DNA of 64,000 bases from Lingula anatina. Its lineage: Eukaryota; Animalia; Brachiopoda. The notes beneath the pieces were generated by a model. That model was given only the letters and a program-made list of their open reading frames with translations. It was not told the DNA's origin and did no database searches. The number at the start of each line of letters is the position of its first letter. Position 1 is the stretch's first letter. Location: the NCBI GenBank assembly GCA_051362555.1, contig CM120646.1:4278001-4342000 (forward strand), read 5' to 3'. The position numbers and the translations under genes were made by a program. Positions 744 to 44,725 of this stretch are shown in pieces.

Positions 744-3700
744 ATGGGCGACAAACTGCGGGCACTGTGGGTTTACCTGGTTTGCTGCCACCAGGGTAAG
801 ATTTACATGGGATTTATGAGTTAGATAAGTTAGCTGCACTAAAAACACTACTGGAAGCAAACAGAAGCTACTTATGCCAAGTATTCCAAGGTGCAGTTTA
901 CACAGAGATACAGCTGCGAAGACTATCGAGATCATTTGGAGACCTCTTTCCAGCTCCTAATCAATTGAGGACCACTTTCTAGTGAGAAGGGGACTACCCA
1001 CGACGTACACTGGACTCTCTCTGAGAGTCGTGTGGTAGGAATGGAAGTCCGGGCTCCCATATGATCAGTATAGTATAGGTTACGGTTAGTCGGTGTATTA
1101 GAGTAAGTATATGGGACGGGTGTTACTTGTACAATATAATGGTGAACGGACTGCGATACCTAGCGGACAACCATTCCTGCCACAACGGTCGCATCCGAGA
1201 TTGCGTTTGCTATTTTTTCTTAATATCGGGTAGATCGTGTTGATTTGTTGATGTTTCAAAATATAAAATAAATTCTCTTTCAGTTCTTACGTTTGACGTG
1301 ACAAAATCTGGACAGACGTATATCAGAGCAGGATCACAGACCACGTTGACATGTCAGTGGACACCACCAGCTGGAATTGGTCCTTTGAGAGTAAACTGGA
1401 GACAAGGTTCTACAATAATAGCAACTGCTGTCTTACCCAGCTTTACACCACAGTATCCTGACACAAGTGTAAAGGACCGTGTAACACTGGGCACTCTAAC
1501 CTCTACAAGTACCAGTACATCAATAACATTAACAAGATTACAGTGTCCAAATGATATAGCTGTGTATACCTGTGATATCACAACTGATGCACTACAAGAC
1601 GACAGTGGAACAGCAAGTTTCAACGTTAATCTATTTTGTAAGTGTTATGTAAAATATATCACGTTTACATGTATAATTATTTAGCGTGATCACATGTGAT
1701 ACTCCGGTAGCATAAAATAATGTCAGCCGTACATGAACGATAAGCTTTTTGATTCCATTTATACGGTTTTAATATCATATTTGGAAAATAAGTTAACATA
1801 TTTCAGTGAATGATTCATGTATATTGTAGTAACGGGATGTAGAATGCTTGATGTTTTGTTTCGTAAATTCAGAACGATTGGTAAAGTGCCTTTTGAAAGT
1901 AAGTAACTTAATTTATTTTGCTATTCCAAATTAACAAGGTTTTGTAAAACGATTTTTTTTCTAAAGTTTTCATTGGAAACGACATCGTGATCATATCCTC
2001 ACCAAGTCAGCTGCAAGCAGGACAGCATGCTTCCCTGACTTGTACAGCCAGTAATATTGGGCGACCACCAGGCATCATGAAGTGGCAAAGAGACTCTCAA
2101 GAAATCAGCACTGGATTTACTCAGCAGACAAGTATCAATAGTGATAATTGTACCTATGATGGAGTTAGTATTCTGAGTATTACACCGACATCCCAGGATA
2201 ATGGAGTTATTTATAAGTGTGTTGTTGACCCAGATGCTACAGTGATTGGAGACTCCAGAAAGGAAGGAAGGTATACACTGGATGTACAATGTTAGTATTC
2301 CGCTGTGTCTTAAGATTTGTCTCTATACTGTTATTGTAAGAAATATATATATAATTTTTGATTGTTATTTCCTCTGCGTTATCCACAAAGGACTTGCATT
2401 ACACATTGTTTATCATCTTTCGTTTGATTTATTATTATTTGTAATATTTTCGCTGTCTCCTTAGATTTTCGTTTTGTAAAACACTTAATTCTTTTAATAT
2501 TTCTGTCCACATTTTTTAATTTTATTTATCAATGTGTTGCATATTTCAGACCCAGTGCCACAGGTGCCAAGGGTGACATCATCCACTGGTACATTTACAG
2601 TTGAGCAGGGAACAACTTTTACTCTCAACTGTCAGGCAAGCGGCAATCCAAGTCCAAGCTATGTGTGGACCAGTCCGGATAATACCAACTCTACTGGCTC
2701 TCAGCTTGTGCTGACACTGTCCAATACTGGACCTTATGTGTATACTTGCTTTGCCACCAACAGTTTGACAACATCGCCATTGCCAACAGCTGTCACAGTG
2801 ACAGTACAAGGTAGGTGCTATATCAAAATTCAAACCATGGAAAAGTTGGTCACCCTTTATGAAATATCTCCAGGTTTTTGTTATTGGTATTTGTGTTTAA
2901 GAAGGGATTCGTTAAAAAACAGAGTTCCAGGGGACCCCTAGTGCTGCTGTCTCCATCTGTTGCATTGAGAGATAAAACTCAAAGCAGAACAAAGCAGAAC
3001 AAAGATAAGCGTTATTACCAGACATCCAGGCAAGGTCTTCGCAGTCACCAAGGTGCTCATACCTTTATCACGCCGTGAAATGTTCCATAACTAAAAAAAA
3101 TCTGCCACGAGTGAAATCCACGGCCCCCATGTAAGTCTAGAAATTTACGTTTTGAGCATGGTAACAATTGTCTGAACGGTTGCGGTTGTTTCCTCTCATT
3201 TTTAAATTGCAAATGTGATGATTTAGTGACTAACATGACTTAGTAAAAATGGAAGCCGTTTGTTTTATTAAACTTACAACCAATTGATCCAATTTCTTAT
3301 TGTCCTATGCTTTATAGAGAAAACTACTACATCAACAACAACATCCACGACAACATCAACGACAACATCAACGACACCAGTAGCAGTAGCATCATCAACA
3401 GACACACTTACATGTACAGGAGGCAAGGGTCTACATAGCACAGGTAATAGGTTGGGCTGAAAAGAGATATGTGTTTAATCTTTGACCCAAAATACAATGG
3501 ATCAAATGTTTTAAAACGTATTTGGAGTACTTTGATGCAAAATGTCCTTTTTGTTGTGTTGTTCAATTTGGTGCTGTTTTGCGCCAATGTGTCTTTTTAT
3601 TTCAAGATTTTGTATCTCTAAGGCGTGTTGGTTGGCGCAGTTGTGGCAGCAGTGGTGATAACATTTGGGGTCGCGGTTGCTTTATTCGTCCTGTATCATG

Positions 3701-4318
3701 TGAGTAAAAAAATGTACAGTTACATTTTTATTCCACTTTAGTTTTCTGGTAAGAAAATACATGAGTTATTTCATGATGGTGCAAAAGTTATTAAGATTTA
3801 TTGACACGATCGTATAAAATATATTCAAGAGAAGATACATAACTAAAGCAAAAGTTTTTCAGACTTGTGTGAACATTTTGTTATGCAATAGATGTATCAT
3901 TGACATTTTTCGTTTGTAGAGGAGCATGGTGCATAGATTTCGGAAGAATAGACAATCTGCTGACACTGTTGAAGTGGAAGTTACGGAAGGCAACAATGAA
4001 TACGCCGTGCTAGAAAGAAAACCAGATGTTAATGAGGTATATTAGATAGAATCTTAACTTTGTATTACTAAACCAAAAAAATTGAATTCATCTGGTCTTT
4101 TGCTCACTGTCCTATTGTTGGACTCCTGACTTTTATTGGATGGAGAAATACATGTGATATATGTGGGTCTTTTATTATTTGACAGTAAGCTGCCATGAAA
4201 CACCTTGCGTCTTGCAAAAATATTTCATTTTTTATCCACACGTTTATTTCAGCCGGATCACACTTACGCAGCACTTCAAGGAAAGATGGCGTCATTCAAT
4301 ACACCACCAAGAAAATAA
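744..4318 (+). CDS. Ig-superfamily type I membrane receptor, copy A (V-C2-I Ig domains, Thr-rich stalk, TM, kinase-less tail with two YxxL motifs), ~458 aa
   Basis: Exons with GT-AG boundaries and continuous frame: 744-795 (MGDKLRALWVYLVCCHQ), 1284-1637 (TLTCQW...DIAVYTC), 1967-2290 (LTCTAS...GVIYKC), 2550-2810 (LNCQASGNPSP...YTC), 3318-3443 (EKTTTSTTT...), 3623-3699 (GVLVGAVVAAVVITFGVAVALFVLYH), 3920-4036 (...NEYAVLERKPDVNE), 4253-4318 (PDHTYAALQGKMASFNTPPRK*). Ig and TM exon lengths match the paralogs. Confidence 0.88.
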
Positions 4319-4922
4319 CTAGGAGAAGTTCCCAGGACAGTAAACGAACGCAACATCTACATCATCTTCACTGGACCGAAGAACGTCAATTCCTCGACTG
4401 GACAACGAACAGAATTAGAAAGAAAACTAATGTGTTAGATTTCAAAACGCTGATGTTAACAGCTGACATTAAAACGGGTTCCAGTCTGTCCAAACCTCCA
4501 AGCTAACAATTCAACGAAAGAACAGCGTATTTTGATAGTGATTTTGTCGAAAACTGGAACTGTTTATTTGAGCTCAAACGCCAAAAGAGTCCTGGTCCGA
4601 CCAATGTTCAGTCAAAATTATTTCGGAGGCTGCCTGTTCTTAATTTGTGTGAGAAGAAATTATATTTACGGCAAACGGCTGTAGGTATTATCACTCACAT
4701 TTTAAGTTTATTAACATTCGCTTTCGCTTTCATATTATTTATTTCATGATATTACCGAGGGTTATATTAAACAAGGACAGTGTCGAGTGTACTACGGAGA
4801 AAAGGACACAGTGAAAGATACACGGCCTCCGTAGCCTCAATGATTTTGGCAAGCTTAAACTTTTTAAAATCGTAAACTCGTAGGCCGTATTATTATGATA
4901 GATGACATTGCACAGTTCCCGT

Positions 4923-5083
4923 GAGGGCATGATCGAGATACGGGGCCATGGAATCGAGACACTTTTGCACGTGCGCAAGCGTCTCGATTCCATGGCCCCG
5001 TTTCTCGAAATAGAATCGGTTATGGAATCGAGACACTTGCGCACGTGCGCAACATAGCGAACCTTTCGAGATACGGAGCCCTG
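4923..5083. mobile_element. Truncated non-autonomous DNA element (same family as 17166-17517)
   Basis: Internal inverted repeats (catggaatcgagacac / gtctcgattccatgg). Ends in tcgagatacggagccctg. Shares gcgcaagcgtctcgattccat with 17184-17204. Confidence 0.55.
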
Positions 5084-6098
5084 CTTTTGTCAATAAATGT
5101 TTTTTCTATCTTTTGGGCAATAAGCTGAAGGACTTTATTTACTTGGCAATTAATATGTATTTCTTTGGACATGTCCTGTGCTTTTAAAATTGAGCAGTGA
5201 TAAAACGATAATGAAGAATGACCACATCAAGTTCGAGAAATGCAAATATCTACGGTTCCCAACCAAGTAACAACATGTATCTGTAAAGTTTTTTTCGTGC
5301 TGTTGGTGGACAGAGCATTAAATTTGTGCAATTTCGACAATCAAGCGATATATTACACTTTCACATGGCCCGTTTTTCTGGTAGTAACTAAGTTAACATT
5401 TAGCACAAAATTAAGACTTGGTTGTGAATTACGACCTAGTGCCAGGAATTGGTTTTAATTTTGGTATAGGAGATACGTGCCCTAAATCACGTTCCATTTA
5501 ACATTGCTTATTCTTCTATTATATATGTTCTCTTTAAAGATTTTTTTAGCCAAAATTGCACATCAATGAAAAATAGATAAAAACCATGAAAGGAAACGCA
5601 CATCTCGTCAAATGAATTCATAGGAAGTATGGCTGAGGGAATTTCTTGTGATGATATCAAACTTTGGTTTAGGCTCTCTCAGATGCTTTCTAGTACAGCA
5701 AATTAAAAACCGGACTGGTGTAAATATCCAAGGGGATACAAACCGACGTTTTATAATAGGTCACCTTGTGGAAAAGCAAAAATTCACAAACAAAGACATA
5801 ACCCTGTAAAAAAATATCCACTCCAGCTGATTTTCGGGCTTGAGGTGTATTGTGAGTCTGAGAATAACACAGTCCTAAACTACCTTCACCAAAAGTCACA
5901 ACGATAAGCTCAGTGTGACAGTTGACCTAATGTCAAACTTAATCAATGTTTTCTAAACAGTCACGCTGTCGTTAGGTGAGTGATAAAACACGGAATTAGT
6001 ACAGTTTGAGGACAAAGTGAAGCTCAGTTGACACGAAGCGTTCAAAATGGGCGACAAACTATATAATATTGCGAGAGTACTGTTGGCATACCTGGTTT

Positions 6099-6386
6099 CA
6101 GGGCCGTAGCCTCCGGGGGGGCAGGGGGGGCAGCTGCCCCCCCTGGGATTTTAGGTGTAAAAGAAATAATCGCAAATGCAAAATGAGCCCACAATTTCTG
6201 ACTTCTGATTGAGCAATAAATAATAGTTAAAATGCACCAGAATGCAGTATTATACATACAGTTTTTAAAATTTTTCCACACCGTGGGAGGGGGGCAACCC
6301 CTCCCACCCCCCCCCCCCCTCAGGGGCATCGCCCCCTCGTATCCGCTTACTGCCCCCCCTGGCATTTTGCTCAGGCTACGGCCCTG
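6099..6386. mobile_element. MITE inserted in the signal-peptide exon of copy B
   Basis: Perfect 13-bp TIRs CAGGGCCGTAGCC / GGCTACGGCCCTG. Target duplication GGTTT. The empty site is visible in the paralogs (tacctggtttgctgcc). Confidence 0.93.
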
Positions 6387-6567
6387 GGTTTGCTGCCACC
6401 AAGGTAAGATTTACGTGGAATTTATGGGTTAGATACAGTATCTGGAAAACAGAGGCTACTTATGCCAAATATTCCACTGTGCAGTTTTCGCAGAATGCGA
6501 TTCCTAGCGGACAACCATTCCTGTCACAACGGTCAAATCCAATATCGCGTTTGCTATTTTTTCTTAA

Positions 6568-7130
6568 CCCTCATCCACAAGGAAATGGAACCCTACGTAA
6601 ACCCTGAAACCGGGCCTCGGAGGCCCGGTGTACCATGAAAATCTGACTCCCCTAAAATGTGACTCCCCAGTCAGATTTTCATTATGAAAATGCGACTCCC
6701 CAGTCAGATTTTCATAAAGAAAATCTGACTCCCCCTATGAAATATTGACTCCCCCCCCCCCCCCCAAAAAAAAAAAAAACATTCATAAATCTCATTTAAT
6801 TTGAGTAAATGACAATGATCTTGTAGTATGCATAATGGAGGACACATTGGCACTTTTTGTAAGTGTGAAGGTGAAAATTTTCATGAAAAAATAAAAAATT
6901 AAAGATTTTTAATTTACCACCCAAGGACTCCCCTATGAAAAAGCTATTTATTTGACATTTGATGACCATTTCAACATCTTTCCTTTTAGGAAACTTTATG
7001 AAGTTTATATTGGAAGTACGTGAAAGTTTGATGGTAAAAAATTGTGTGAAAAAAAAAACACATGAAAAATGAGAAAAATTAAAGATTTATATTCTAACAC
7101 CCAATGATTCCCCTATGAAAAAGCTATTTA
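6568..7130. mobile_element. One-ended TTAA-flanked (piggyBac-like) element with subterminal repeats, at the deletion that removed the Ig exons
   Basis: Begins TTAA|CCCT exactly where intron homology ends. Contains direct and inverted copies of atgaaaatctgactcccc (6635-6755) and a ~60-bp duplication (6885-6950 / 7065-7130). No second end is seen. Confidence 0.55.
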
Positions 7131-7838
7131 CCCTGTATGTGTATACTTGCTTTGCCACCAACAGTTTGACGATAACACCATTGTCAACATATGTCACAGT
7201 GACAGTACAAGGTAGGCGGTGCATAACATATATACATATATAATCAATTTTTGAATTAAAATAGACGGAGAAAATCTTCAAATCAGCCTTCTTTCATCAG
7301 AACTTTACCTTGTGATACATGTGTTTTTTCCACCACATTTTAATGTAACAATGATGTGAAAATCAGTTCATAACATCCACTGCATTTGACGAAAAATATT
7401 TTAAAAAGAAACAATTTTAACACTTTATTTAACTAAAAAAGAAAAAAGATAAGGAAGAATGAAAGTAAGAAGAAAGAAAAAATAAAGAAATTAATCAAGA
7501 GGGATACATTGTGAATTGCAGTTTATTACCAAGGTATACCGCATCCAAAACCATTTAGAAAATTCCAATAAAAATTGTCACGACTAAAATACACTAGTCC
7601 CCATCCAAGTCTAGAAATTCAGAATTCAGAAAAGGTTTGTGCATGGTATCGATTCTTTGAACGGTTGTCGACAGGAACTAGGTACGTTTTTGATTAAAGG
7701 AAAAGTGCTGAAATTCCCTTCCTTTCAACGTGCAGATGTAATGACCTAATGACTGAAATGATTTAGTCAAAATGGAAGCCGTTTGTTTTATAAAACATAG
7801 CCAATTGATCCAATTTCTTGTTGCCCCATGCTCGATAG

Positions 7839-11753
<3,915 letters not shown>

Positions 11754-12893
11754 ACTACTGACTATGTCAAGTTTTTTTTTTTGTACAATATGTATATGCT
11801 CAACGACAAACTTATTTGGTAGATTGTTTGTTTGTTTGTGTATTTATTTATTTATTTATTTTTTTTTGGGGGGGGGGGGAGCACTAATTCAAAAACACCA
11901 GAATTGGATTTAATTCAAATGTTATTTATTACCATTGGTGAGAGTTTTCCTGGGAGAAAACACCGCGAAGTCATTCGCCAAGCCAAGCAAGTACCACTAT
12001 GACGTAACAAGTCTACTGGTACACATCAGTGCATTTTAGTTTCAAAGACTTTGGCTTATTTCACTTATGTGCTTCTTTGGCGTCCACCCTAGTTAAACAT
12101 GCAGATATGTTAATAGATGCACAATTTTTTTGAATTATTGAAGAATAAACCACTTTATAGATCTGCATTTTTTAAAATGATTGTTTTGATATTCATTGCA
12201 ACACTTAACGCTACGAGGCGAGTTTGAAAAGTATTCAAGGGACCTTCTCGCTTCCCATGCCTTTTTAAAGAAAGAAACTGTTAGAATTTATGTTTAAAAA
12301 GTATGATGATCTGAATAAAAAAATATCACTAAAACTAATGATAGTTGATTATTTTATGATATTTTTTGTATTTGAAGGTTCTGATCCAAAATTTTGCATG
12401 CATATAAAACACTAAAAGACAACAAGGTATGCATGCCTCGTCAAATAACTTCATATTTAGTATAGTTGAAGAAATATTGTTTTTGTTATCTCGGCTGGCT
12501 TCCATTACAGCAAATTTAAAACAGGACGCGGACATAAAACCGCCTTTTTAAAATGAACCAATTTGTGTAAAGGCAAAGACTCACAAAGAAGGGCATAACT
12601 CAGCGAAAATTAAAATATCTTTTCCAGCTGATTTTCGAACGTGAGGCGTATTGTGAATTTGGCAATAGATTTTTATGTTGATATCAACGCAGTTCACTAT
12701 CACGGTTCCATTGCTCTATTCTTTCTACAGCACGAGTCGTTAAGCTCAGCGCCGCAGTCAAGGTGAAATTTAGCTTCCTTACGTCAAATAATAAGTTTTC
12801 TCAACAAACATGCTGTTGTTATGTAAATGGTTAAACACGGAAGTAATGTAACTCGGGGACAAAGTTGAGGTCAGTTAACACGCAGCGTTCAAA

Positions 12894-15800
12894 ATGGGCG
12901 ACAAACTACATAATATTGTGCGGGCACTGTGGGTTTACCTGGTTTGCTGCCACCAAGGTAAGATTTACGTGCAATACAAGGACTGGATACGTCAGCTGTG
13001 CTTGAAACAAACCATGGCCATGGCCACTACTTCAAAATCTGAGATCCGCCTTTTAATCAAAATTACTAAGTTGGTGCGCGGAACGCCCTTGTTTATGTCC
13101 CGTTCACTCCGTGCTGCCACCCGTTTAACAGGGAATTTGTCCCATCCACGACCACTACGATGGTCTGTGGCGGGGTTTTTAGTTAAAACAGATTTTAACA
13201 AAGGATGAAACAATTCACAACAGGTTACTAATACTAGTTGTTACACTTGAGACCTGTTTTACTAAAGAAAGTTGGTGTTAAATTTATGTTAAATTTAGAT
13301 TCGACTCTTTCAGTTTACTTTTACCGAAGATGAACAAAAGACGCTCCCAGGAGGGGAGACCCTTCCCAAGGCAACGCAATTCAATGACCTGAAATATTGG
13401 GCTTGTTTTGTCAAATAAAAAAGCAGCTGTTTTTCAGACAATTGACCTAATCTTTAACACTAGTATCAGTATTTGCCCGAATTATTCTTTTGTAATATCG
13501 ACCCTTGGTTTTCTAGTAATCATCGGATTTTCCACATCCCCACAGTATGAAGTTAGGCCCTAGCCTATCAAACGTAAACCACATTTATTTCGTTGCATTT
13601 CTTATGAATAGTAAAAGGGGGTCCGATCATTTGCACTTAATCAAACCTGATCCACCTTTCGCTAGTCCATTTCCTTTAATCCGAGGTTACGTTTACTTAG
13701 ATTTATGTCGAATGTAAACAATTTTTGATTGTTCGGGCTATTGTCATGCACCTATTTTGTCCAGGTTTTAAAAAATTATTTCACTTGCAGTACTTTCTTT
13801 TGACGTCACAAAATCTGGACAGACATATGTTCAAGCAGGATCACAAACTACGTTGACATGTCAGTGGACACCACCAGCTGGGCTTGTACTTCTCAGAGTA
13901 AAGTGGAGACAAGGCTCTACAGTAATAGTAACTGCCATAATACCTAGCTATACACCACTGTATCATGACACCAGTATAAAAGACCGCGTGGCACTGGCCA
14001 CTCTCACCTCCACAAGTACCAGTACATCAATAACATTAACAGGATTACAGTGTCCAGGTGATATTGCAGAGTATTCATGTGAGGTGCTTACAACTTCAAT
14101 AGTAGACGATATTGGAACAGCGAGTTTCAACGTCAGTCTCTTTGGTAAGTGGAATAATAAAGACGTTTTCATGTAGTTCTTTCGCATAAAATAATGTTCT
14201 ACACACATACAAGATAGGCTGTTTAGTTACTTATATATTTGGATAATTATATATTTATGTCTTATTTCGAAAATTAGATATCAAGTTTTAATGAATGTAG
14301 TTACGGTATATTGAATGATTGACGCCTTTTTCGTGAAAACTGAATGAATAATTAAAAGAAGTCATTTTAGTTCATCTCATTCTCAAATTTGCAAGATTTG
14401 TGCGACGATTATTACTTTTCTAGATTTCCTGGGATATAATATCACAATCACATCCTCACCAAGTCAGATACAAGCAGATCAGAAGGCCTTCCTGACTTGT
14501 ACAGCCAGTAATATTGGGCGACCACCAGGCATCATGAAGTGGTACAAAGCCGACCAAGAAATCACCACTGGATTTACTCAGCAGACAAATATCAATAGTG
14601 ATGGTTGTACCTATAATGGAGTTAGTATTCTGAATATTACACCAACATCCCTGGATGATGAAGTTATGTTTAACTGTGCTGTTGAACCAAACTCTACAGT
14701 GATTGGAGACTCCTCAAAGCAAGGAAGGTATACACTGGATGTACGATGTAAGTATTTCATGTCTTTAAATTTATGTAAAAAGTGTCACCGGATAAAAGGT
14801 GCCAATTTTATTAATAACCATTAAGTTTTAAATCGCATTTAATTAGTTCATTGATGTTACCCAGATAGACTTTGACAGAAGAAATTTGTATTACACAATG
14901 TTTTTCATATCTTTAATCTTTGAGTTGAGAAACAAGAATAATGTTATTTTTCATTGTTTGTAGCATATTCCATGCCTCTGTATAAATAGTTTCAGTGATA
15001 GTGTACATGTTATGCTATGTTATGTGGTAAAACATAAAGTCATTTTCATTTGAATGTTTAATTATCTGGAATATTTTGTTCATTATATCTCAGACCCAGT
15101 GCCAGAGGTGCCAACGGTGACATCATCCACTGGTACATGGACAGTTGAGCAGGGGGCAACTTTTACTCTCAACTGTCAGGCAAGCGGCAATCCAAGTCCA
15201 AGCTTTGTGTGGACCAGTCCAGATAATACCAACTCTACTGGCTCTCAGCTTGTGCTGACACTGTCCACTACTGGAAATTATTTGTATACTTGCTTTGCCA
15301 CCAACAGTTTGACGACAACACCATTGTCAGCAGGTGTCACAGTGACAGTACAGGGTAGGTGTTATATCAAAATTCAAATCATGGAAAAGTTGGTAACGCT
15401 GTATGAAATATCTCCAGGTTTTTTATTGGTATTTGTGTTTAAGAAGGGGTTACTTGATAAACAGAGTTCCAAGGGACCCGTAGTGCTGCTTTCTCCATCT
15501 GTTGCATTGAGAGATAAAACACAAAGCAGAGCAAAGATAAGCATTGTTACCAGACATCCATGCAAGGTCTTCCCTGTCACCAAGGTGCTCATACCTTTAT
15601 CACACCATGAAATGTTCCACAACTAAAAAAAACGTGAAACGAGTGAAATCCATGGTCCCTATATAAGCCTAGAAATTTAGAAATCAGAATACGGTTTGAG
15701 CATGGTAACAATTGTCTAAACCGTTTCGGGCAGAACATACCATTTTTATTAAGGGAAAAGTGCTGAAATTTCCTTTCCTTTTTAAAGTGCAAATGTGATA

Positions 15801-16581
15801 ATTTAGTGACTAACATGACTTAGTCAAAAATGGAAGTCGTTTGTTTTATTTAACTTACAGCCAATTGATCCAATTTCTTGTTGTCCTATGCTTGATAGAG
15901 AAAACTACCACAACATCAACAACAATATCAACGACACCAGTAGCAGTAGCATCGTCAACAACTGACACACTTACAGGAGGCGAGGTTCTACATAGCACAG
16001 GTAATTGGCGGGGCTGAATGGAAATATGTTTAAGCTTTGACCCCAAATATAGTGGATTAAATATTTTAAAACGTATTTGGAGTACATAGATGCAAAATGT
16101 TCTTTTCGTTGTGTTGTTCAATTTGATGTTGTTTTGCGTCAATGTGCCTTTTTATTTCAAAATTTTGTATCTCTAAGGCGTGTTGACTGGTGCAGTTGTG
16201 GCAGCAGTGGTGATAACATTTGGAGTCGCGGTTGCTTTATTTGTCCTGTATCATGTAAGTAGAAAAAAGTACAGTTATATTTTTTATTCTACTTTAGTTT
16301 TCTGGTAAGAAAATACATGAGTTCTTTCATGATGGTGCAAAAGTTATTAAGATTTATTTACACGATCTTTTAAAATGTATTCAAGATACATAACTGAAGC
16401 AAGAGTTTTTCAGACTTGTGTGTACATTTTGTTATGCAATGGATGTATCATTAACATTTTTCGTTTGTAGAGGAGCATGGTGCATAGATTTCGGAATGAT
16501 AGACAATTTGGCGACACGCTTGAAGTGGATGTTATGGAAAGCAACAATGAATACGTCGTGCTAGAAGAAAACCATATATAA
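12894..16581 (+). CDS. Ig-superfamily membrane receptor, copy C (V-C2-I, stalk, TM, short tail with one YxxL), ~430 aa
   Basis: Exons 12894-12957, 13791-14144, 14424-14747, 15094-15354, 15899-16000, 16178-16254, 16471-16581. A 1-nt loss relative to copy A gives NEYVVLEENHI* (TAA 16579-16581). The homolog of the last exon starts at 16805, after the stop. Confidence 0.85.
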
Positions 16582-17165
16582 GTAAGCTAATAATACCAAC
16601 CAGGTAGTAGATAAAAAGTTTTGTTTAGTTTAAAAACAGTATCTCACTCTGTATTGCATATCCAAAAGGTTGCATTCGATTTACTCACTGTCCAATTGTT
16701 GGATTTCTGACTATTTGGGTTTTATGTCATTTGGTAGAAAGTTGCCATGAACCACCTTCCGTCTTGCAAAAATATGTCATTTTTTGTCCACACGTTTATT
16801 TCAGCCGGATCACGCTTACGCAGCACTTCAAGGAAGGATGACGTCATTCAATACTCCACCAAGAAAAATAACTAGGAGAAGTGCGAAGGACAGTAAACGA
16901 ACGCGACATCCACATCATCACTGCTGGACCAAAGTACGTCAATTCCTCGGCCGGACAACGAACGCACAGAATTAGAAAGAAAACTAATGTGTCAGATTTC
17001 AAAACGCTGCTGTTAACACCTGACATAAAAACGGGTCCCAATCTGTCCAAACCACCAAGCTAACAATTCAACGAAAAGATAGACAACTATCACACGCCAG
17101 TATTTTGACAGTGATTTTCTCGAAAACTGGAACTTTTTATATAAGCTGAAACGCTAAAAGTAGTC

Positions 17166-17517
17166 CAGGGCTCGTATCGACCGAGCGCAAGCGTCTCGAT
17201 TCCATAACTCGCCCTTACTCGCACCATATAATACATCGTAGCCTCTATGCGATATTGCTATTCGCAACATTTAAGACATTTTATTCATGAATTTGAAAAT
17301 TTTACATTAAAGAAACCCTGGCTTTTTTACTTTTGATTACTGTTTATTACAATTTAGTCTAGTTCTGATTTATATAAAATACATCTTCATCATTTTTATC
17401 TATAAACTTCCTTTGTATTTATGTTGTACAGTCTATTGAACATTTTATGGATTTTAGACTCGAAACAAATATACGATGAAATATTAACTTGCGATGCTTT
17501 CGAGTTACGGGGCCCTG
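17166..17517. mobile_element. MITE in the 3' flank of copy C
   Basis: Imperfect TIRs cagggctcgtatcga / tcgagttacggggccctg. Absent from the homologous position of copy A (~4590). Confidence 0.7.
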
Positions 17518-19022
17518 ATCCAACGACTGTTCAATCAAAATGACTTTGAAGGCTACCTGTTCGTAATTTGTGTGAGAAAGAAATTGTATTTTTTAACTAA
17601 GTATATGGTCAAACAGCTGTAGGTACATGTATTACCATGCATTCACCTGCAAGTGCATAAACACTCGCTTTCGCTTTTAGGTTATTTATTTCATGATACC
17701 ATTAAGTTTATATAAAGCAAAGAGAGTCCCGACTGCTCTACACAGTGAAATATACACGGCCCCCGTAGCCTTTGTGATTTTGTCAAGCTAAAACTTTTAA
17801 CAAAATTTTAAAATCGAAAGCTCGTAGCCCGTCTCATTATCGAAGATGGCACCTTGCAGTGATCGTGACAATGGTTGAAATAGTTGTTGGTCTCTTTCCC
17901 TTCCATCTTTGCTGTTTTGGGTCATAACAATGGTCAAAATGCTTGAATTTCAGTGTAATACACTTGCATGAATTTGAAGTTGTGCATTTCCTTATTCTGG
18001 TCACATGGATGAACAAAAATCGCAGGGGGCTGCACTGACAATGTATCGATCGCACGACAGGCTTACGGCAGCTGCATTGAGACCGACAACGTTCCGTACG
18101 ATTACTTTTTAACCGAAAAATGATTTTTCCTACTCGACCTACACGACAAGCTTTTCTTGTTATCTCTAGGTAGAATCTCAGTCGAATCAACGATCCAAAA
18201 AAAAAAAAAAAAAAAAAACTAGCAAAAATAAAACCTTTTCTATCTGTCAGATGTGTTTACTCGATCTAAAATAATGTCCTTATCTTTGGTGAGGACATTT
18301 CTTGTATTTCCTGATAATGTAGTCTGCTTTTCACAATAAATGTTTTTAATCCTTTGGGCAAAAAGTTGAAGGAATTTATTAGCTTCGCAATTAATATGTA
18401 TTTCTTTGCAGATGTTTCCCTGTGCTTTTAAGGGTTTTAAAAAGTTCAGCAGTGACAATGATGAAGGATGAGCACATCATGTTGGAGAAATGCAAATTAC
18501 TATGTTTCCCAACCAATTAACAACATTTATCTGTAAAGTTTATTTTCGTGCTGTCAGTGGAAGCAGAACTCGTTTAAAAAAAGACAAGATCACAGAAATT
18601 ATCGCAATTTTCGCCATTCAAGCGATCCTACGCACTTTTGCACGCCCCGTTTTTCTGATAGTACTGAGTTCGACTAATCATAAAATTAAGCATGGATCAA
18701 AACTTGGTTCTGAACTACAAGCTGGTGCCAGTAAGGTGTACTCTGCCATATTTTTAATCGTGTATAATTTTGCTCTCGTTGTCTTAAAACAGAAAATGAG
18801 GTTGTTTCATTTATACTAAATTTAAACGCCTAATACGTTGACCCTTCACGATTACACTGTCATAAATTTTCTAACCAATAACCGATAAGCGCAGTATGGT
18901 ACATGTATTACACCTCCTTCTGTCAACCCCATTCTAAGTTATCTTTTCTTGTGATATACAGCTAACGGTTTCACACGGGAGTACGTGTCAGTGGCGAGGA
19001 CAGTTGACACGCAGCGTTTAAG

Positions 19023-19133
19023 ATGGGCGACAGACTACATTATCTTGTGCTGGCACTGTGTGCTTACGTGATTTGTTGCCACCAAGGTAAGATTTACATC
19101 TAATATGTTGGGTATTTACGTAATATTAACAAT

Positions 19134-19165
<32 letters not shown>

Positions 19166-20566
19166 AGAGTCCCCCCAAGGTCATCGCATGTATAGTCAGG
19201 AGTTTATTTTTAGGGGTGGTATAGGGACAGGGAGGTCTTACCCCCCCTCCCCCATAAAAATGAAAAATTATCGAGGACAGACTGTATTATTTTATACAGA
19301 TTTCAAACTACAAAACAAATTCTCTTACAGTGCTTTCTAGTACGGTTAAAAAATCTCTACAGACTTATGTTCAAGCAGGATCACAAACCACGTTGACATA
19401 TCAATGGACACCACCAGCTGGGGTTGATCTTCTTAGAATAAACTGGAAACAAGGTTCTACAGTGATAGCAACTGCCACAACACCTAACTTTACACCACAA
19501 TATCCTGACACAAATGTAAAGGACCGTGTAACACTGGGCAGTCTTACCTCCTCCAGTACCAGAACATCAATTACATTAACAAGATTACAGTGTCCAGGTG
19601 ATATAGCTGAGTATACCTGTGAGGTGGTTACTTCTGCACTGCATGACAGCACTGGAACAGCAAGTTTCAACGTTAATCTATTTGGTAAGTGCCATATAGA
19701 ATAATAAAACTGCGTATTTACTTTGACCAGGACCAGAAAGATTAAGATCATTTTGATTGACATATGCATTTCATTAAGATGAACTAAAAGATAATTTTAT
19801 ACAAAAGTCGACCAGATGTCACCACAAAGTTTCAAGTAGTATAACTTAGAGAAATGCCAAAAGTCATCGTATTACCCGAGAAAAGAAATGGATTTTCTGC
19901 TTGCTTGCTGAGCTGTATGTAAATGGGGCAGATAAGTAAGACAAATTATAGGTCGGTCAAATTTACGACCAAAAAATTTAAAGAGGTGTCAATTTAAAGC
20001 TATTTTATGGCTTATCGATTGATTAATTCGGTTTATATCTTGGCATGTCGACTTTATTTGATTTGTATAAGAAACTAGTGGGAGTGGTTTATATATAGTG
20101 TACTGACTTGGATTCCATCGATGTTCGGTTCATATTTTACCTCTGTATCTGTATCTGTTCGTTTGTAATAATTACATCTTTAACATTAATAGTCTCTAAA
20201 ACTCGCTGTAGAGTTCCTTGGAAACGACATCACAATCACATCCTCACCAAGTCAGCTGAAAGCAGGACAGCATGCCTCCCTGACTTGTACAGCCAGTAAT
20301 ATTGGGCGACCGCCAGGCATCATGAAGTGGTACAAAGGCTATCAAGAAATCACCACTGGATTTACTCAGCAGACAAGTATCAATAGTGATGGTTGTACCT
20401 ATAATGGAGTTAGTAGTCTGAGTATTACACCGACATACCTGGATAATGGAGTTATGTATACATGTGTTGTTGAACCAAACTCTGCAGTGAGTGGAGACTC
20501 CCCAAAGCAAGGAAGGTTTACACTGGATGTACAATGTAAGGATTTTATCATAGGTTAGAATTTGTG

Positions 20567-20618
<52 letters not shown>

Positions 20619-20863
20619 TGATTCTGTGAACAGTTTCGGTTATGGTATACTTTTGTGATTAAGGGAAAAGAAGTGAAAGTTCTAAAAAAAAAAAAAAAAA
20701 AAAAAAAAACGGTTCCTTTTCATAAAAATCTCAGGGATCTCTTCTCTCATAATGACCTACTGACTAAAATGAATTTGTCAAGAATGAAAGTCGTGTGGGT
20801 TATTAGACGTAAATACACAGTGTATGGAGCCATTTTATCTTGCTGACCGTTCCTTTTACAGAG
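19023..20863 (+). CDS. Ig-superfamily copy D: signal + V + C2 only, predicted secreted (~247 aa) or a truncated pseudogene
   Basis: Exons 19023-19086, 19331-19684, 20212-20535. The Ig3 exon is absent. The next acceptor (stalk exon 20862-20915) gives T|AG = stop at the junction. No TM exon is found downstream. The V-domain B-strand Cys is replaced by Tyr (TLTYQW). Confidence 0.7.
19137..19165. repeat. (TC)n microsatellite
   Basis: Direct reading. Confidence 0.9.
20568..20616. repeat. (TA)n microsatellite in the intron where copy D lacks its Ig3 exon
   Basis: Direct reading. Confidence 0.95.
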
Positions 20864-22454
20864 AAAACTACCACGGCAACATCAACATCCACGACAACAG
20901 TCACGACACCTGACGGTATAAAGTATGATTCAGCTAGTCAAATCCTAATTTCAAGAGGGAAATATTAGTATGATTTTTTACAGCATTTTATAGCCTCGTT
21001 ACCATATGATAAAATGTTGATCTTAATAAGGGATGTAATCTTAGACAAGTATTTTTTTAACAATGGACAGAAATTATGAAATGCTTTAAAAGAATGCATT
21101 TAAATTTTCAGTATTTTTCTCAACTTGTAAAATACATAAATGCACACCACAGGGGCTCCTGCTCCTGTGTTGCCCCCGTTGTAAAAGGCTTTTTTTTTTC
21201 AAATAAATGTATTACTATTATTATTATATCTGGCAACCTTAATCCTCAACTTAACAGATATTTTTTTAAGATGGGACGTGTCATACAGTTAAAGTTACCC
21301 AAGGGGTTGAAATCACGCAATTTAGATGAACTCTCTCGTTGTTAGGTATGGTAAAGGCATTTGATTAAGTTTGGCATTAAGGCCTAAAGCAAACTATGTT
21401 GTTGTTTAAATTAGCGTATGTGAAAAGGTTTGAAATGTAATATTATTTATACAGGAGGCTAAACAAATAAATGACATGCATGGTATAATTATCATGTTAT
21501 TCTTTATTTCTCTTTCACTAATTTAACTTTATTTCAACTTCATAGCTAGATTGCTTCCATTGTCCAGCCTTTTGAAAAGTCGCAGAGTGGCACTATTATA
21601 TTTTTGACGTGACAGTATGTTTATATCTGCATTATCTAACTGGAAAAGGGAAAACTCCTAACAAACTTATTATTCTAAGAAGTACACAAAGAAATGTACA
21701 GAATCTATAATATGTGCCACTGAGTATCACTTACAGATGATAAAAAATGCTGCCTTTTTCAATTTTCTCAAACCAATTGACTTATTATCATAAAGCGAAT
21801 TAAATAATTACATATCACAATCATAAGTTGAAGTACATAAATATTATAGCTCTGAAAAACAGCATGAACAAAAATGCTGGATGTTGACAGAAATGGTCCT
21901 AAGTACAGTATATCATGGTAAAAGATTACTTTCCATGGAAAGGTTTGCATCTGAGCCGACAATTATACCATTATTATTAATCCAAGAGCATAAAACGCAC
22001 AGCAAAATTTCAAGAACTTCAGCTCAATCTCATTACATGCTGCTGTAAAATAAATAGATATATAAATGAAAAAATTATTACAATAAATTTTCCATTCAAT
22101 AATCATGCATGGGGTATGATGCTCCATGTGTTACAGCTTAAAAATCCTAAAATGTTAATAATTCCATTTAATTATTTGAGATATGATCTCAATTCATTTT
22201 GTGCTCATTACAAAGTTCTTTTTACAGATCTGCAGACATTTTTTGTAAGAAAATAATACTAAATTAAAAATACCAACATTTGGGGGGCAGAAAAATATTT
22301 CAGACTACAGAAATAAATTTGCTTTCACCAAGAATGTTTCAGGAGTAGCAAATAACATCTGTTTAGTAACCAGGCAGTATGATGGTGAACAAGATATCAA
22401 ACTTGAAAATATAGCTTGGTTAACAATACCCCTGGATGGAAAATGACATCATCA

Positions 22455-25400
22455 TTATTTACACTTCCCTTTACTTTTTGTCCTGGACTTGGTGCGATCC
22501 AAAGCTTTTACCCCCTTCTTCAAACTGTGACATCTTTTCTTAAAAGCAGAATCATTTTTATGTTTAGAAGTACTGTTGGAACTTCTTTTTGTTGGATTAG
22601 ATTTTTTCACAGAGGAATTGTGAGATGTCTTTTGATGAAGTGGACCAGATTTCTTTGTAGAAAGGCTGCCAGCTGTGTGACTGTCAGATTTATCAGCTCT
22701 CTCTAAACCACGGGACTTCTTGCTAAAACTGTTCTCTGTTTTCTTGTCACTAGTGGTGTCAGCTTCACTGCTGAGGTCAGAGATCTTCCTGAATGGCTCA
22801 CTTTTAAACAAGTTCCGTCCACACACCTTAAAAATATGTCAACTTATATTAATAAATAATAATCATAATCATAATAATAATACCACAGATTGAGATAAAT
22901 GCCCATAAATAACATACCTATAAACTAGGAAATACTACCAAAAGAGAATTAACATCTTTTCAAAATTTTTCTTTGAATTATCCTAATTGTAATAAACTTG
23001 TACCACATTTGTGATAATTATACATCACTCAATTATAATAAATTCTCATGAACTCTTACACATATGCCTGCTTTCAAACACATACTATTACTAAGGGGCA
23101 GATCCAGGATTACTTGAAGAGGGAGTCTGCAGATGCAAAGCACCTTCCCCTGGCATGGGGTTTAGGGCCCTGAAGGGCGAACAGTGCTATTTGGTATGGT
23201 TAAGAACTATGATTCAGCTAGTTAAAATTCTAATTTCAAGAGGGCCATTGGTGTGATTTTTTTTAGAAATCGAAGGGAGGGGGGGTCAGGACCCCCCTGA
23301 CCTCTCCCCCTTTAACCTGCTACTGTTACCTTCTGGTAGTGGGACTGGGCATCACTCTGCCGGTAAAAGAAGGCATTGCAGTAGTCCACGGGGCACATGT
23401 AGTTCCTGCAATGATCCTTAGTCTTTGGGTCCTTCTTGCTCAAGATGTCCCGGGCTGCAATGTCTTTAGTGTCTGGGTGATCTTTAAGAATGTGGAGCTT
23501 CACATCTAGAAAATGGGAGCATTTGAAAAATATGTCACAAGTGAATGAGAATATGAAAGTATACAATGCAAGTAAATAAACAAATGTATTATAAATCTTT
23601 TAGAAATTATTTTTTAATATCTAATGTTTTTCTGAGAATAAACATTTTTCTAAGTATCATAAATGTACCATCCAACTTTTGGTTGCAAATAAAAATTATT
23701 ATTAAATAAGCAAAAAATAAAAATCCTGGAAATTGCAGCAATTCACCAGTGATCACCAATGGTCAAAAGCAGATAATTATGACCTATAAACTCATCTTCA
23801 CATCAACAAAGAGAGAGGCAAATCCAACTCTTCAATAAGCAATGACAAATGGACTAGTTGAGCTTCTTTTGACAAAATGTCCAGATTACAAAAAGAGTTC
23901 AGTTTCATTCTCATCCTTGAACATACTTTAAATACATGTATATCAAAATGGACTCTGGGGTAGCGCTAGCAACTTTTTTCGCTTAGCCAAATCACCACTT
24001 TTTGTCATTTTGTTATCCAAATGGTGTTAATTTGACTAAAATGAGCCAAATCAAGCCCTTTTTGTTTAGCCAATTTAAGTCAGTTTTAGCATTTGGCTAA
24101 ATTGGCGGGTGTTAGCGTTACCCTAGGGACCTTATTTCATTCTTATTCTCACCACGTAAGTTCTCAGCCTGGAATGCAGGAGACCCTGGGCATTTCATAC
24201 ACTCCCACAAGTGTTTACTGGTATCTACGTGCTTTTCTCTGGGGACTTTCCTCTCCTGGTATATAGGCACTGATGAACCATTTTGCCCGTCTGATGCTTC
24301 AGTCTCAGCAACCCCTAGCTTTGTCTCTTCTGGCTTCTTTATTTCTTTTGTGTTTGACTTGGAAGAGTGGGAAGCAACAGTCTTTGGAGTTTTGTTGTCA
24401 GCTTGAGGTAGTGTAGAGGTACTTGTAGTACCAAGTTTGTGATGTCTACTATTGACAAAGGATTTTGACCTACTCTTATCGAAGAGATGTTTTTTGGGTT
24501 TTCTTTTCTTCAATGGGGAAGGTACATAAGTTTCGTCATCCAATGAATCAGAGTCGGAGAAATCTGAGGGTGGATTATTTTGGATAGAGCCATCCTTACT
24601 CCAATTCGAGGCATCATCACTGTCTGCGCCATCCTGGTTTTCTTCACAGTCCATATGTTCTTTAACCATGAGACTTTCTTCACCTGCCTCTGACTCACAC
24701 GTAAGCCTTTTTGTTTGTTTTACAGGCAGTTCTTCATCTCTTCCAGGCGAATGAGTTCTTTTCAGTACTCTTTCATTTGAACCGCTAGACTCCCCACTTT
24801 GAGGCATGATCTTTTGGGTTTGTTCCATATTAAACACAGTGCCAAATTTTTCCAAATTTTCACAAGATTTCATATGGCATGCCAATTTGTCTGCTGCCCC
24901 CTTCTTTCCTAAGACACGGAAAAAACATTCCTTTCCTGGGCAAAACCTGAGAAGAACAGCATCCCTTGCCTTAAGAGAGAACCACCCAAAGATTGTACTG
25001 GATGATGAATGGCTCTGGGCAGTATGCGACTTGATTCCTTGAACACTAGTGAATTCTTCCTTACAAAACACACAGCGCACTTTGAAAGGGTAATAGTGTG
25101 TTACAAGCCTTCCCATGGGTGATCTGCCTTCTACATAAGTCAACAGGCTCTCTGCAGTGTCTTCCCAACTGTCCACAGTGTGAAGTTCTCCCGCTACAGG
25201 TCTTGCAGGAACTGATTTCTCCCCCCTGGGGTCAGCTGGTGGACCACCATTCACCAAACTCCCAGAAGACACCTGTGTAGCCTCTGGTGTATTTGGAGAG
25301 GAACTCTGTACATCTGCACCACCTTTATAAAGGGTATTCCAATCTGTTCTACTGCTACCAGACTCACACTTGTGTGTTATCAATGGCTCCTGCTTAAGAG

Positions 25401-28400
25401 ATACAGATGTGGAGTCGTTTGAACTGTCGTCATTTGAAATCACTTCAACCTCTTCAACGCCAAGTGAGGAGTAAGAACTAATCCTTTGTGATGAAGCCAC
25501 TGTCATAGTCATGGCTGTCAAGTCCAATTTTTCCAACAGGACAACAGGATTTAGGTTTATGTTCCTTCTTGCCACATCACCTGCTGATTTTTTCGTTGTG
25601 CTGGTTCCCATTTCTATTGATTGTTCTTCATCAAGGGGATTTAGGATGTTCTCCTCCTGTTCTGTTGTGCCTGTTTCTATGCCAGTATCCTGTATACTTT
25701 CTGGTGTTTGTGTTTCCTTTTGGCCTGCGACCATGGGCTCCAATGAAACTTCTGGGATGGCAGCAGTGGCATTATAATCCACTGGTTCTGTCTTTACTTT
25801 AACAGCAACTGGCTCTACATCCTCAATGCCATTGTCAGGCTCAACTGGTTCAGTTTTCCCTTCCTCATTTCCTTGAACTCTTTCTGCAGCATCTGCATCA
25901 GGATCTCCTGGTTCACTTTTAACTTTCACCAAATCTGTTTCCATTTGCTCCGTCTTGGTCCTAGTTGCTGGACATACGATATTTGTGGTGGTAGCAGCAG
26001 CAAGACCAGCATGTCCGTGTACCTCAGAGGCATGGTAGTGCAACATGATCCTCAGCGAAAACCTCTTGTTACACCGTGGACATGTAAAAGGCTGGTGTTT
26101 TGAGCGGACGTGCTCCTCCATCTCCCGCAGCACTCTGGTCTGATAGGGACAAAAGTTACACCAGAACATCCCTTGAGAGGTAGACATAAGAAACAGCTTT
26201 ACCTTTGATGAGGGCTTGGATGATACCGATTGCCCCAGCTGTCCCGCAGTGCCCTTGGAACCCTGAGGATCAAAGCTTTTGCCAGTTGGCAATTCACTCT
26301 CTTGGTTATCCCTACACTGGGCACCTGACGTTTTATGTGACATAGAAATACCAGTCTGAGGGTTTGTGCTTGCTGGCATGGAAATTCCTAAGTTTGTGCT
26401 ACCTGACATCAGTGTGCAGGAATTTGTGCTAGCAGGTGCTTCACTTGGTTGTTTCCTCATACTCTGCCTTGGCAAAGTCTGGGTCTGCACACTTCTCACT
26501 GGTTGTGAAGAATTCAAACTGGAGGTCTGCATCTGCACTGCTGGTACTGGTGCAGTGGACTGTGTAGGTTTGGGCTTTATCGGCACTGGTAGTACTGTCG
26601 TAGCAGATTGTGCAGGCTTAGGCTGAATTTGCACTGGTTGTACTGGTGGAGCAGATTGTGAAGGCTTAGGCTGAATTTGCATTGGTTGTACTGGCGCAGG
26701 AGTTTGTGTTTGCTTAGGCTGAATCGGCCCTGGCTGTACTTGTGTAACAGATTGCGTCTGCTTAGGCTGAATTTGTAGTGGTGCAGCAGACTGTGTAGGC
26801 TTAGGCTGAATTTGTACTGGTCGCACTGGTGCAACAAATTTTGAAGGGTTTGACTGCACATGGGGAGTCTGCATTGGAAAATTTGTCTTGTAAGTATTAG
26901 ACTGAACCTGCCCTGCAGGGAGTGGGGCAGTGACCTGCATGGGAGAGTTCACAGAAAGGGGAAGCACTGGCACAGCTGACACTGGAGCAGTCAAATTCCA
27001 AGAGCCAGGATACATCTGGATGGGATAATTGGAAGAGCTTGGTTGCATTTGTACAGTTTCATTAGGCAGTGCTGAGCTCGTAGAATTCTGCTGCACTTGC
27101 CCCAAGCTGTCTGGCACCACTAAGTTCATAGGGTTCTGGGAAGTACTGAAGGATTGCAGGGGCATGCTGGGATTCCCTGCTGCTGGCAAATATTGCAATG
27201 GCACCATCACATAATCTGGAACCTGTGGAAAAAAACTAATTATTCAGAATTTTTTAATGCAGGGCTTCCTCACCATTTTTTTTTTTTTTTTTGTCCACTG
27301 TCCCCTTTGGGCCAGTGAGGTCTGGTAAATATGACAAGGGTTACTTGGTGCATTAGATTTAACTTGTCTTATTTGAGCCAGTAACCCATGTGATTCACTG
27401 TCCCATTCAACAATACAGTTTCTGACATGAAGCCAACTTTAAATTTCAAGTAAAAATAAACCTAAATCTTCTGAATTACCACCTTCAAAATTGCTTAAAA
27501 TGTGTTTTGTTGCAGGTAGTGGTGGGAGATTAATAATTTAGGTTGTTTGAAAATATTGATCAGTTACAATATGTCACTTCATAACATCTATAACTAATGA
27601 AATAACAATCACAACAAACAGTAAAGTCAATGTTACACAATCTCCCCACTTTATAAACATTTTTGCATCTCTGGGTCCATTTCCAAAAAATTAATGTACT
27701 CGGTACACTGTTCCAGCTCTGTGGGGACACTTGCTTAGGCAGGTTGGGTAACTCAGGGATGCTAGTGGGGTCCGGAAAGAAAACCTGAACTTTTTTTTGG
27801 CAAAGACCGGGGGGGGGGGTACAAATTGATTATGAAACAATTACTATATTTCAAATTTTATTTAATAAATATATTGCAATATATGTCATCACAACTTCAT
27901 GGTAATTTTCAACAGTTGTTTCCAAGGATAATCTTGACATTGACAAGATGGAAGTGCCATCAGTACATAAACACCTACCACCCATAGTAGACAGTAATGA
28001 TCCCTCACGTAAGCTTGATAATCACCAGCATGATAATGATAGTCACTAAATGTTAATCCCTTTCATTTATCATTTTCAAAGATTGGTAATGGCTAATATC
28101 GTCTGTTCCCCTCTCCGCGAAATCCATTTAGTTTGGTTTAGTTCAAAATTCCGCGCACACGGTGTCAAAACTTTCCACATGGGTGCCGACATTAAAGCCT
28201 ACATTTCCAACCAATCAAGCGCCATAAATAAATCACGTGCTACGGTTGTGACTAGATATTGTGTTGAAACGCAGCTCTGTCGCAATGGTTGAAATGCGAC
28301 GTTCCTCTTACGCATCGTTCGTCCAGTCCGCGACCACGTTAAAAACGAGAATTCCGGAACAAAATATAGTACCAGAAAATTTTATAACTGGACGCAAAAA

Positions 28401-40095: not shown

Positions 40096-40799
40096 TATTC
40101 GTGCCAAAGTTTTGACTTCATATATAACTTAAATGGTTCAAGATTTGTAACGATATACATGTTTTATATGTCACAATTAAACCAGGGGCATCTATATAGT
40201 GGGGGAATAACAACTGGGGAATAACTGTGCAGGTAAATAGCGACTTCAGACAGTAACAATACGAAATGAATAGGGCCGGTAAGATGCGCGAAACTATAGG
40301 CCTACATACTGTAGTACATGTATACAACGAGTAGTACGTAAAACTGTAAATTTTAAATCAAAAACGAGACATACTAATGATGATGATGATGATAAATGAT
40401 ATATGCATGTCGTATGTCATATGACAGTGTCGGGATGTGTCAGACTGTCAGAGAGAGTGCCTGGATCCTGTTGGGGCCAGCAGACGATTTTCATCTTTTC
40501 CATTAGAAAATTGCATTGTGGGAAGAAATGTAGCGTGTAGCATGTAGCGGTTTTAAGAACCTGGTTAATGGTCTTTTGTTAATTGGCTAGCGATGGTCAG
40601 AGAAAGAGAAAACTTCCGACAATTTGTACTTTCACGCAGCTTAATGACACGCGTATCACGAGCTTGACAAAGTAGTAAATGCAGTACATGTACATGCACT
40701 TCTACACTTATTTCTCGGAAACCATTTACATGTTAGTTCTCTCGTGTTAAAAATACTGTTTGTATGCAGAAGAATTGTCTTGTGCACATCAAGCTTAAG

Positions 40800-44690: not shown

Positions 44691-44725
44691 AGATCCTGTT
44701 TTAAACCAGTTGCTGAAAAGCGAAG

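Follow-up and report, generated by a model that had tools for sequence, protein, structure and literature searches.

A tandem array of Ig receptor genes derived from a receptor tyrosine kinase in Lingula anatina, and its ectodomain on a separate two-ITIM receptor

The brachiopod Lingula anatina carries an array of four tandem paralogs that encode immunoglobulin (Ig) receptors related to receptor tyrosine kinases (RTKs), which we analyzed in a 64,000-nucleotide (nt) stretch of assembly GCA_051362555.1, contig CM120646.1 (hereafter the window). All four copies (A-D, Table 1) lie on the forward strand and have GT-AG exons with matching phases, and for family copies beyond the window public protein models are the only source. 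The array of duplicated receptor genes is real, with one intact copy (A) and three damaged ones (B, C and D). What is new, as judged by sequence comparison, is that the ectodomain of the array also sits on an unrelated tail with two inhibitory motifs of the immunoreceptor tyrosine-based type (ITIMs), a tail that is conserved in a nemertean. The reading that we put forward, and to which we would give slightly less than an even chance, is that of a birth-and-death RTK cluster: A remains an intact receptor without a kinase, the other three copies have been damaged, and a separate two-ITIM receptor shares the ectodomain. In a paired-receptor system, A-type copies would then likely supply, or have supplied while now decaying, the side that activates or acts as a decoy.

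Window self-comparison places the related units between positions 16 and 20908, and beyond these four units neither a further family piece nor another kinase exon was found elsewhere in the window. A preliminary description of this sequence had proposed four tandem paralogs with the same exon plan; the tandem copies stand, but the plans differ, as B is without Ig1, Ig2 and most of Ig3, and D is without Ig3, the transmembrane (TM) segment and the tail. The product of copy A consists of a leader, V-set, C-type and I/C2-type Ig domains, a Thr-rich stalk, a TM helix with zero Lys or Arg, and a tail of 60 amino acids (aa) that contains YxxL motifs at residues 426 and 442. Its open frame thus agrees with the proposal of a receptor with two YxxL motifs and no kinase. 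The last exon of A shares 45 of 60 nt with the first kinase exon of B (8730-8789) and 56 of 60 with the equivalent exon of C, while the next best 60-nt match in the window outside A, B and C, on either strand, reaches only 31 of 60. This alignment, which the preliminary description had pointed out, identifies the kinase-less copies as truncated RTKs. The A-type stop recurs in the public model P0067, which is 87% identical to A; no public model exceeds that identity.

The same three Ig domains are found in P0002, the product of a Lingula gene that differs from the array in its leader, TM segment and tail. Per-domain identity between array copies (A, C or D) and P0002 is 70-72% for the V domain, 71-80% for Ig2 and 84-88% for Ig3, and rises to as much as 93% per domain for public array copies, while the tails of A and P0002 are unrelated (E 7.6). 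The P0002 tail holds two strict ITIMs ([ILVS]xYxx[ILV]), both of which are kept in P0175, a three-Ig-sized receptor of similar layout from the nemertean Tubulanus; the last 44 aa of the two proteins are 66% identical, and a two-ITIM tail of this type gave 2 matches among 496 candidates. Conservation of the tail in a nemertean, together with the high likeness of the ectodomains, suggests that the ITIM tail is old and that its sharing of an ectodomain with the RTK array is recent. P0002 and P0175 themselves represent an apparently undescribed inhibitory-type receptor of lophotrochozoans.

Outside the family, the nearest ectodomains score 77-78 bits against the family hidden Markov model, versus about 650 inside it; these are the Lingula V-C-I RTK P0023 (77 bits) and a scallop non-kinase receptor (78 bits), both ranked just after the family. 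The ectodomain of the nemertean ITIM relative ranks 72nd of 169 (27 bits). Donation of the ectodomain by the ITIM gene is not established, as the nemertean ectodomain scores far lower than P0023 and the scallop receptor and the tree lacks resolution. Paired receptors are defined, in the accessible text of PMC5112662, by similar outsides and opposite insides, and by that definition the occurrence of one ectodomain on unrelated inhibitory-type and RTK-derived tails amounts to a paired-receptor layout. The earlier idea of a paired-receptor-like cluster therefore survives in altered form, through P0002 on another contig and not through the four window copies. By analogy, the layout likely works like that of vertebrate paired immune receptors, though membership in that class is not established.

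The remaining copies are damaged in different ways. An ancestrally Ig-less B is rejected because an Ig3 exon remnant survives (Table 1), which means that the ectodomain was deleted; the remnant adjoins a repeated element at about 6635-7130. In exon 1, an inserted element puts a stop at codon 21. Copy B is not certainly null, since an in-frame ATG at 6232 inside this element could open a 487-aa open reading frame (ORF), which three upstream ATGs precede and whose leader is weakly hydrophobic; RNA reads over the element sequence carry other flanks. The kinase retains VAVK, HRD and DFG, but its catalytic loop reads HRDLATRT, with Thr in place of the Asn present in 30 of 30 fetched comparator kinases with an HRD..DFG match, and its glycine loop, GEGRFW, has Trp at the third Gly position of GxGxxG. 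The catalytic-loop Asn is needed for kinase activity, and from these two changes the B kinase is predicted to be inactive. Of the proposed Ig-less receptor with two YxxL motifs and a kinase, the missing ectodomain and the kinase exons are there; exon 1 is interrupted and the catalytic Asn is lost.

Copies C and D, described earlier as a one-YxxL and a soluble form, do end as stated, through ordinary lesions. In C a 1-nt deletion leaves the second-motif exon (16805-) present but unreached, and the splice donor used by B is mutated from GT to CT. In D the missing Ig3 created a stop at the Ig2/stalk junction, Tyr replaces the first Cys of the V domain, and the sequence stops resembling the other copies near 20908, a short way ahead of a dispersed repeat. 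Dispersed repeats at 4893-5105, 6099-6386, 6635-7130 and 17178-17519 attract many RNA reads, on both strands and with foreign flanks; two of them sit at the B lesions.

Public records place these copies in a wider Lingula family. A search with the Ig2 exon returned 8 proteins among 109 candidates, all from Lingula anatina at 72-81% identity, and a HMMER scan with P0006, a full Ig-plus-kinase copy, added two more close pieces, both from Lingula; the others of its best 150 matches were at most 44% identical. Within those best 150 matches the family appears to be young and found only in Lingula, and its proteins are already in NCBI under generic names. Near-identical B, C and D models lie on one public 275,867-bp contig, along with a second B-like and a second C-like model, A-type tails and the full Ig-plus-kinase copy; among public models, A-type tails occur in P0005 and, with the same stop, in P0067. 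The model P0005 (XP_013415486.1) starts with a stretch of 51 aa, 92% identical to the last kinase exon of B, to which an A-type gene is fused. It is probably mis-joined; in that case a kinase copy would sit immediately upstream of an A-type one, and may lie just left of the window.

Copy B matches XP_013415487.1 (P0158) at 320 of 323 aa when the exon-1 element is ignored; P0158 is likewise Ig-less and has the same kinase changes, with an intact leader from which the element appears to be absent. Copy C matches P0008 at 252 of 254 aa, with the same end, and P0004 at 266 of 274, while D matches P0001 at 239 of 247, with the same end and the same Cys-to-Tyr change. Identity to the public records is thus 97-99% for B, C and D, and since the B kinase changes and the C and D lesions are common to both, they are not errors of this assembly.

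The preliminary description had also proposed a variable Ig-receptor system, and variation scored over 7 loci is indeed concentrated in loops of the V domain. With loops defined from an AlphaFold model (mean predicted local distance difference test score 65), the BC, C'C'' and FG loops have an entropy of 0.94, against 0.42 for the rest of the domain (reached in 0 of 20000 permutations, and in 2 of 113 circular shifts); from Ig1 to Ig3, entropy declines from 0.59 to 0.25. The ratio of nonsynonymous to synonymous substitution rates (dN/dS) between the A and C V domains is 0.37 (confidence interval 0.22-0.62), indicative of purifying selection. Across the window copies, with the A-B and B-C last-exon rows left out, it is 0.37-0.69 for the V domain, 1.1-1.7 for Ig2 and 1.0 for Ig3 (pooled, 0.65-0.90). 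Ratios near 1 throughout had been named as a sign of decaying duplicates; they are seen for Ig2, Ig3 and the juxtamembrane exon, and not for the V domain. Identity between A and C is patchy (0.71-0.95 per 150 nt) and trees differ between domains, as expected of recombination. A fold search ranked the ectodomains of MAG, nectins, CD22, Necl and SIRP-alpha at the top, which suggests a likeness of shape, not of function.

The best matches of the B kinase are Cad96Ca-like and FGFR/RET-like RTKs (36-45% identity), in keeping with the proposal that the locus was built from a Cad96Ca/RET-like RTK. A more specific origin finds no backing: no supported clade emerged for the B kinase among 30 tree rows, including the Cad96Ca-like P0128 and P0153 (12 isoform rows and rows covering fewer than 240 aa were left out), and the family has no cadherin domain, its ectodomain being Ig only. 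These alignments and trees do not show B to be an ortholog of Cad96Ca or RET. Ig-bearing pseudokinases occur in bivalves as well, as P0049 and P0120, Ig RTK-like proteins of mussel and pearl oyster, have YYRL in place of HRD. The YxxL motifs are separated by 12 residues in A (YxxL-x12-YxxL) and 11 in B, so that both pairs pass the loose spacing of 6-12 for an activation motif of the immunoreceptor tyrosine-based type (ITAM). Because a tail-shuffle test (1 of 20000) was done post hoc, we give it no weight.

To assess expression, reads from 4 of 9 same-species raw-read runs (6-25% of the reads of each, with no tissue label) were mapped at 92% likeness, a threshold that more diverged copies would escape. 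The Ig2-Ig3 splice (2290>2550, the A junction) was found in all four runs, in 85, 6, 7 and 2 reads, showing that the family is transcribed and spliced. Most mapped reads are 90-99% alike and so come from other alleles, copies or populations, and many are repeats. No single-copy control was at hand, the zinc-finger exon of the window (Table 1) having given no control homolog, and read divergence is not separable into allelic, paralogous and cryptic-species parts. In run X1, 219 reads continue from Ig3 into a stalk read as Glu-Lys-Thr7-Ser, which fits P0002 but not any of the four stalks in the window, although the match rests on 30 low-complexity letters; P0002 is likely, but not certainly, the strongly expressed member in this one of four runs. 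Kinase exons reach a depth of 2-5 in X7 only, a run that also has scattered intergenic depth.

If the array and P0002 do act as a pair, the ITIM receptor would bind a ligand such as a microbial adhesin through the GFCC' face of its V domain and would recruit an SHP-type phosphatase. Related ligands would be bound by A-type copies, whose two YxxL motifs, a legacy of the RTK juxtamembrane region, would carry the signal: a Src-type kinase or an active RTK would phosphorylate them in trans, and a tandem-SH2 kinase (Syk/Shark) would read them. As copies come and go, unequal crossover and conversion would hold the ectodomains close to one another, and the damaged copies B, C and D would persist as relics or serve as passive decoys.

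Several observations weigh against this reading. Three of the four copies are damaged, and P0002 and the array lie on different contigs. Rough depth is 0-6 over the A tail exons and about 1 or less over those of C, versus about 124 for Ig2/Ig3 in X1. No catalytically intact kinase was seen among the family members, the P0006 model stopping before the catalytic loop and having a degenerate glycine loop. Among the window copies no dN/dS interval lies above 1, and Ig2, Ig3 and the juxtamembrane exon evolve almost neutrally; the loop pN/pS, 0.75-1.5, can also be explained by relaxed constraint, and the C''D loop, taken as a control, varies as much as the others (entropy 0.91). The 1-3% by which B, C and D differ from public records does not look like Alr-like polymorphism. 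The motif spacers of A and B fail the strict ITAM spacings of 6-9 and 6-8 given for Hydractinia Alr and for CEACAMs in the accessible texts of bioRxiv 10.1101/2022.03.04.482883 and PMC5112662, respectively. Finally, 6 of 29 related RTKs carry the loose YxxL-pair pattern before the kinase, so the pair represents inherited docking sites and is not new, though it could be reused.

Several of these points would also fit an RTK locus that was repeatedly duplicated in a repeat-rich region and is degenerating, with the ITIM gene as its sole working member and A as the least damaged relic. We regard this as possible but on the unlikely side. Transposon-associated lesions in the damaged copies, loss of the catalytic Asn from the B kinase, dN/dS of about 1 outside the V domain and the low expression of the array tails all speak for it. 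Simple decay is harder to reconcile with a copy A that is open over 8 exons, an A-type stop that recurs in a gene just 87% identical, a V domain under purifying selection, a TM-kinase frame of B that is open over 388 codons, and spliced reads for array-type TM-juxtamembrane and kinase joints (3 each in X7).

A bolder form of the paired-receptor reading holds that the brachiopod independently built a paired immune-receptor system. Its activating receptor would be an RTK cut at the first kinase exon, with two former docking tyrosines serving as an ITAM, and recent exon exchange would explain why an ITIM receptor of ancient origin has the same rapidly varying V-C-I ectodomain. We consider this unlikely; if true, it would offer a traceable route from RTK to ITAM receptor.

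Improbable, in our judgment, is a homophilic adhesion or self-recognition family like the nectins or Hydractinia Alr1/Alr2, in which V variation would set like-to-like binding and the tails would tune output. The modeled V-C-I fold resembles that of nectins and Necl proteins, with variation on the face through which these proteins bind in trans. Against it, Lingula is solitary and is not known to show allorecognition, a subject on which the literature matches listed held nothing. The Alr complex, as far as its accessible description goes, likewise mixes ITAM genes, ITIM genes and pseudogenes; the 97-99% identity of B, C and D to public records speaks against allelic diversity of that kind. Least probable of all, and an overreading of the sequence, is the original suggestion of four functional copies with four selected signaling outputs (two motifs, an Ig-less kinase, one motif, a secreted form): the frames are open up to the lesions and the Ig-less B and the C and D stops are no assembly errors, but B has a broken exon 1 and is predicted to encode a pseudokinase, D is missing a canonical V-domain Cys and has a rough V-exon depth below 1 in all four runs, and the lesions are of ordinary types whose sharing at 97-99% identity says little about selection.

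Elsewhere in the window, four carboxylesterase-family copies, 87-90% identical in DNA and two per strand, form a second tandem array. A rhodopsin-family G protein-coupled receptor (GPCR) frame continues past an in-frame TGA into its apparent last two helices, which may reflect a pseudogene, an intron or read-through. Searched against proteins of 572-1820 aa, a long exon with weak C2H2 zinc-finger matches yielded no homolog at E<=1e-10. Three broken ORF pieces presumably derive from a Tc1/mariner transposase.

Table 1. Features of the receptor array and of the rest of the window.
Feature	Position	Strand	Description
Copy A	744-4321	+	Intact kinase-less receptor, 458 aa, open over 8 exons
A exons	744-795; 1284-1637 (V); 1967-2290 (C-type); 2550-2810 (I/C2); 3318-3443 (stalk); 3623-3699 (TM); 3920-4036 (YxxL 1); 4253-4321 (YxxL 2 and stop)	+	
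A last exon	4253-4321	+	5' part of first kinase exon, cut by frameshift and rearrangement
Copy B	6047-11753	+	Ig-less TM receptor with predicted pseudokinase
B exons	6047-6403; 7839-7961; 8128-8204; 8360-8476; 8733-8898; 9190-9306; 9521-9702; 10232-10354; 10906-11017; 11179-11275; 11576-11753	+	
MITE-like (miniature inverted-repeat transposable element) insertion	6099-6386		288 bp in B exon 1; 14-bp perfect inverted ends, 5-bp target duplication
B Ig3 exon remnant	7136-7211	+	76-nt 3' end with donor; 91-93% identical to A and C Ig3 exon ends
Copy C	12894-~16980	+	430 aa; 1-nt deletion relative to A in juxtamembrane exon (16471-), stop after one YxxL
Copy D	19023-20915	+	Partial duplicate, 247 aa; no Ig3, no TM
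D exons	19023-19086; 19331-19684 (V, first Cys>Tyr); 20212-20535; 20862-20915 (stalk fragment)	+	
Dispersed repeat	20921-20979		83% match to 23205-23262
Long open exon	24118-27243	-	1041 codons; weak C2H2 zinc-finger matches, Gln/Pro-rich repeats
Broken ORF pieces (three)	38752-39612	-	Presumed Tc1/mariner transposase
Rhodopsin-family GPCR	40737-42167	+	In-frame TGA (41766-41768) in long third intracellular loop
Carboxylesterase-family copy	44717-46222	+	Single large exon; Pfam COesterase tested for this copy only
Carboxylesterase-family copy	48412-49926	+	Single large exon
Carboxylesterase-family copy	54783-56282	-	Single large exon
Carboxylesterase-family copy	60019-61635	-	Single large exon

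We found no paper on this locus, in a search that covered few subscription papers and probably not the Lingula genome paper, so that a published description may yet exist. Paired ITIM/ITAM receptors are known mainly from vertebrates, and motif-bearing Ig receptors have been reported in Hydractinia, Botryllus and oyster. Here, a single ectodomain occurs in kinase-bearing, kinase-cut and ITIM forms within one lophotrochozoan species, with a cut site that can still be aligned in DNA. Should A prove to signal, one could test directly whether ITAM-like tails can arise from RTK juxtamembrane regions; should it not, what is left is a commonplace decaying duplication next to a conserved ITIM receptor that is of interest in itself.

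Vertebrate paired receptors include SIRP and Siglec pairs as well as CEACAMs. In CEACAM1/CEACAM3 and the Xenopus Ceacams, according to the accessible text of PMC5112662, similar V-topped ectodomains are likewise borne on ITIM and ITAM-like tails, with variation on the CC'C''FG side and with conversion and cluster decay. The Lingula genes differ in that what remains of an RTK juxtamembrane region, with its long spacer, forms the tail of the activating side, the partners are on different contigs and there is no sequence orthology. The Hydractinia Alr family reportedly comprises 41 loci, versus about 10 models in Lingula. It too is an IgSF cluster in an invertebrate; its N-terminal domains are V-set, its tails carry ITAMs and ITIMs, some forms may be secreted and pseudogenes are expressed (accessible text of bioRxiv 10.1101/2022.03.04.482883), but no kinase link is described there, and extreme allelic polymorphism and allorecognition are features of Alr. 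The oyster CgIgR and CgIgIT2 are, like the Lingula proteins, lophotrochozoan Ig receptors with tyrosine motifs, a likeness in description. CgIgIT2 is said to bear an ITIM. CgIgR has an ITAM and five Ig domains and recruits Syk in haemocytes, and in the accessible text of PMC6994640 it is not reported as RTK-derived or as sharing its ectodomain. Nearest in kinase class are the invertebrate Cad96Ca/RET/FGFR-like Ig RTKs, from which B differs in its lost catalytic Asn and in having no cadherin domain; among them, XP_013420054.1 (P0023) has a V-C-I ectodomain 28% identical to that of P0006.

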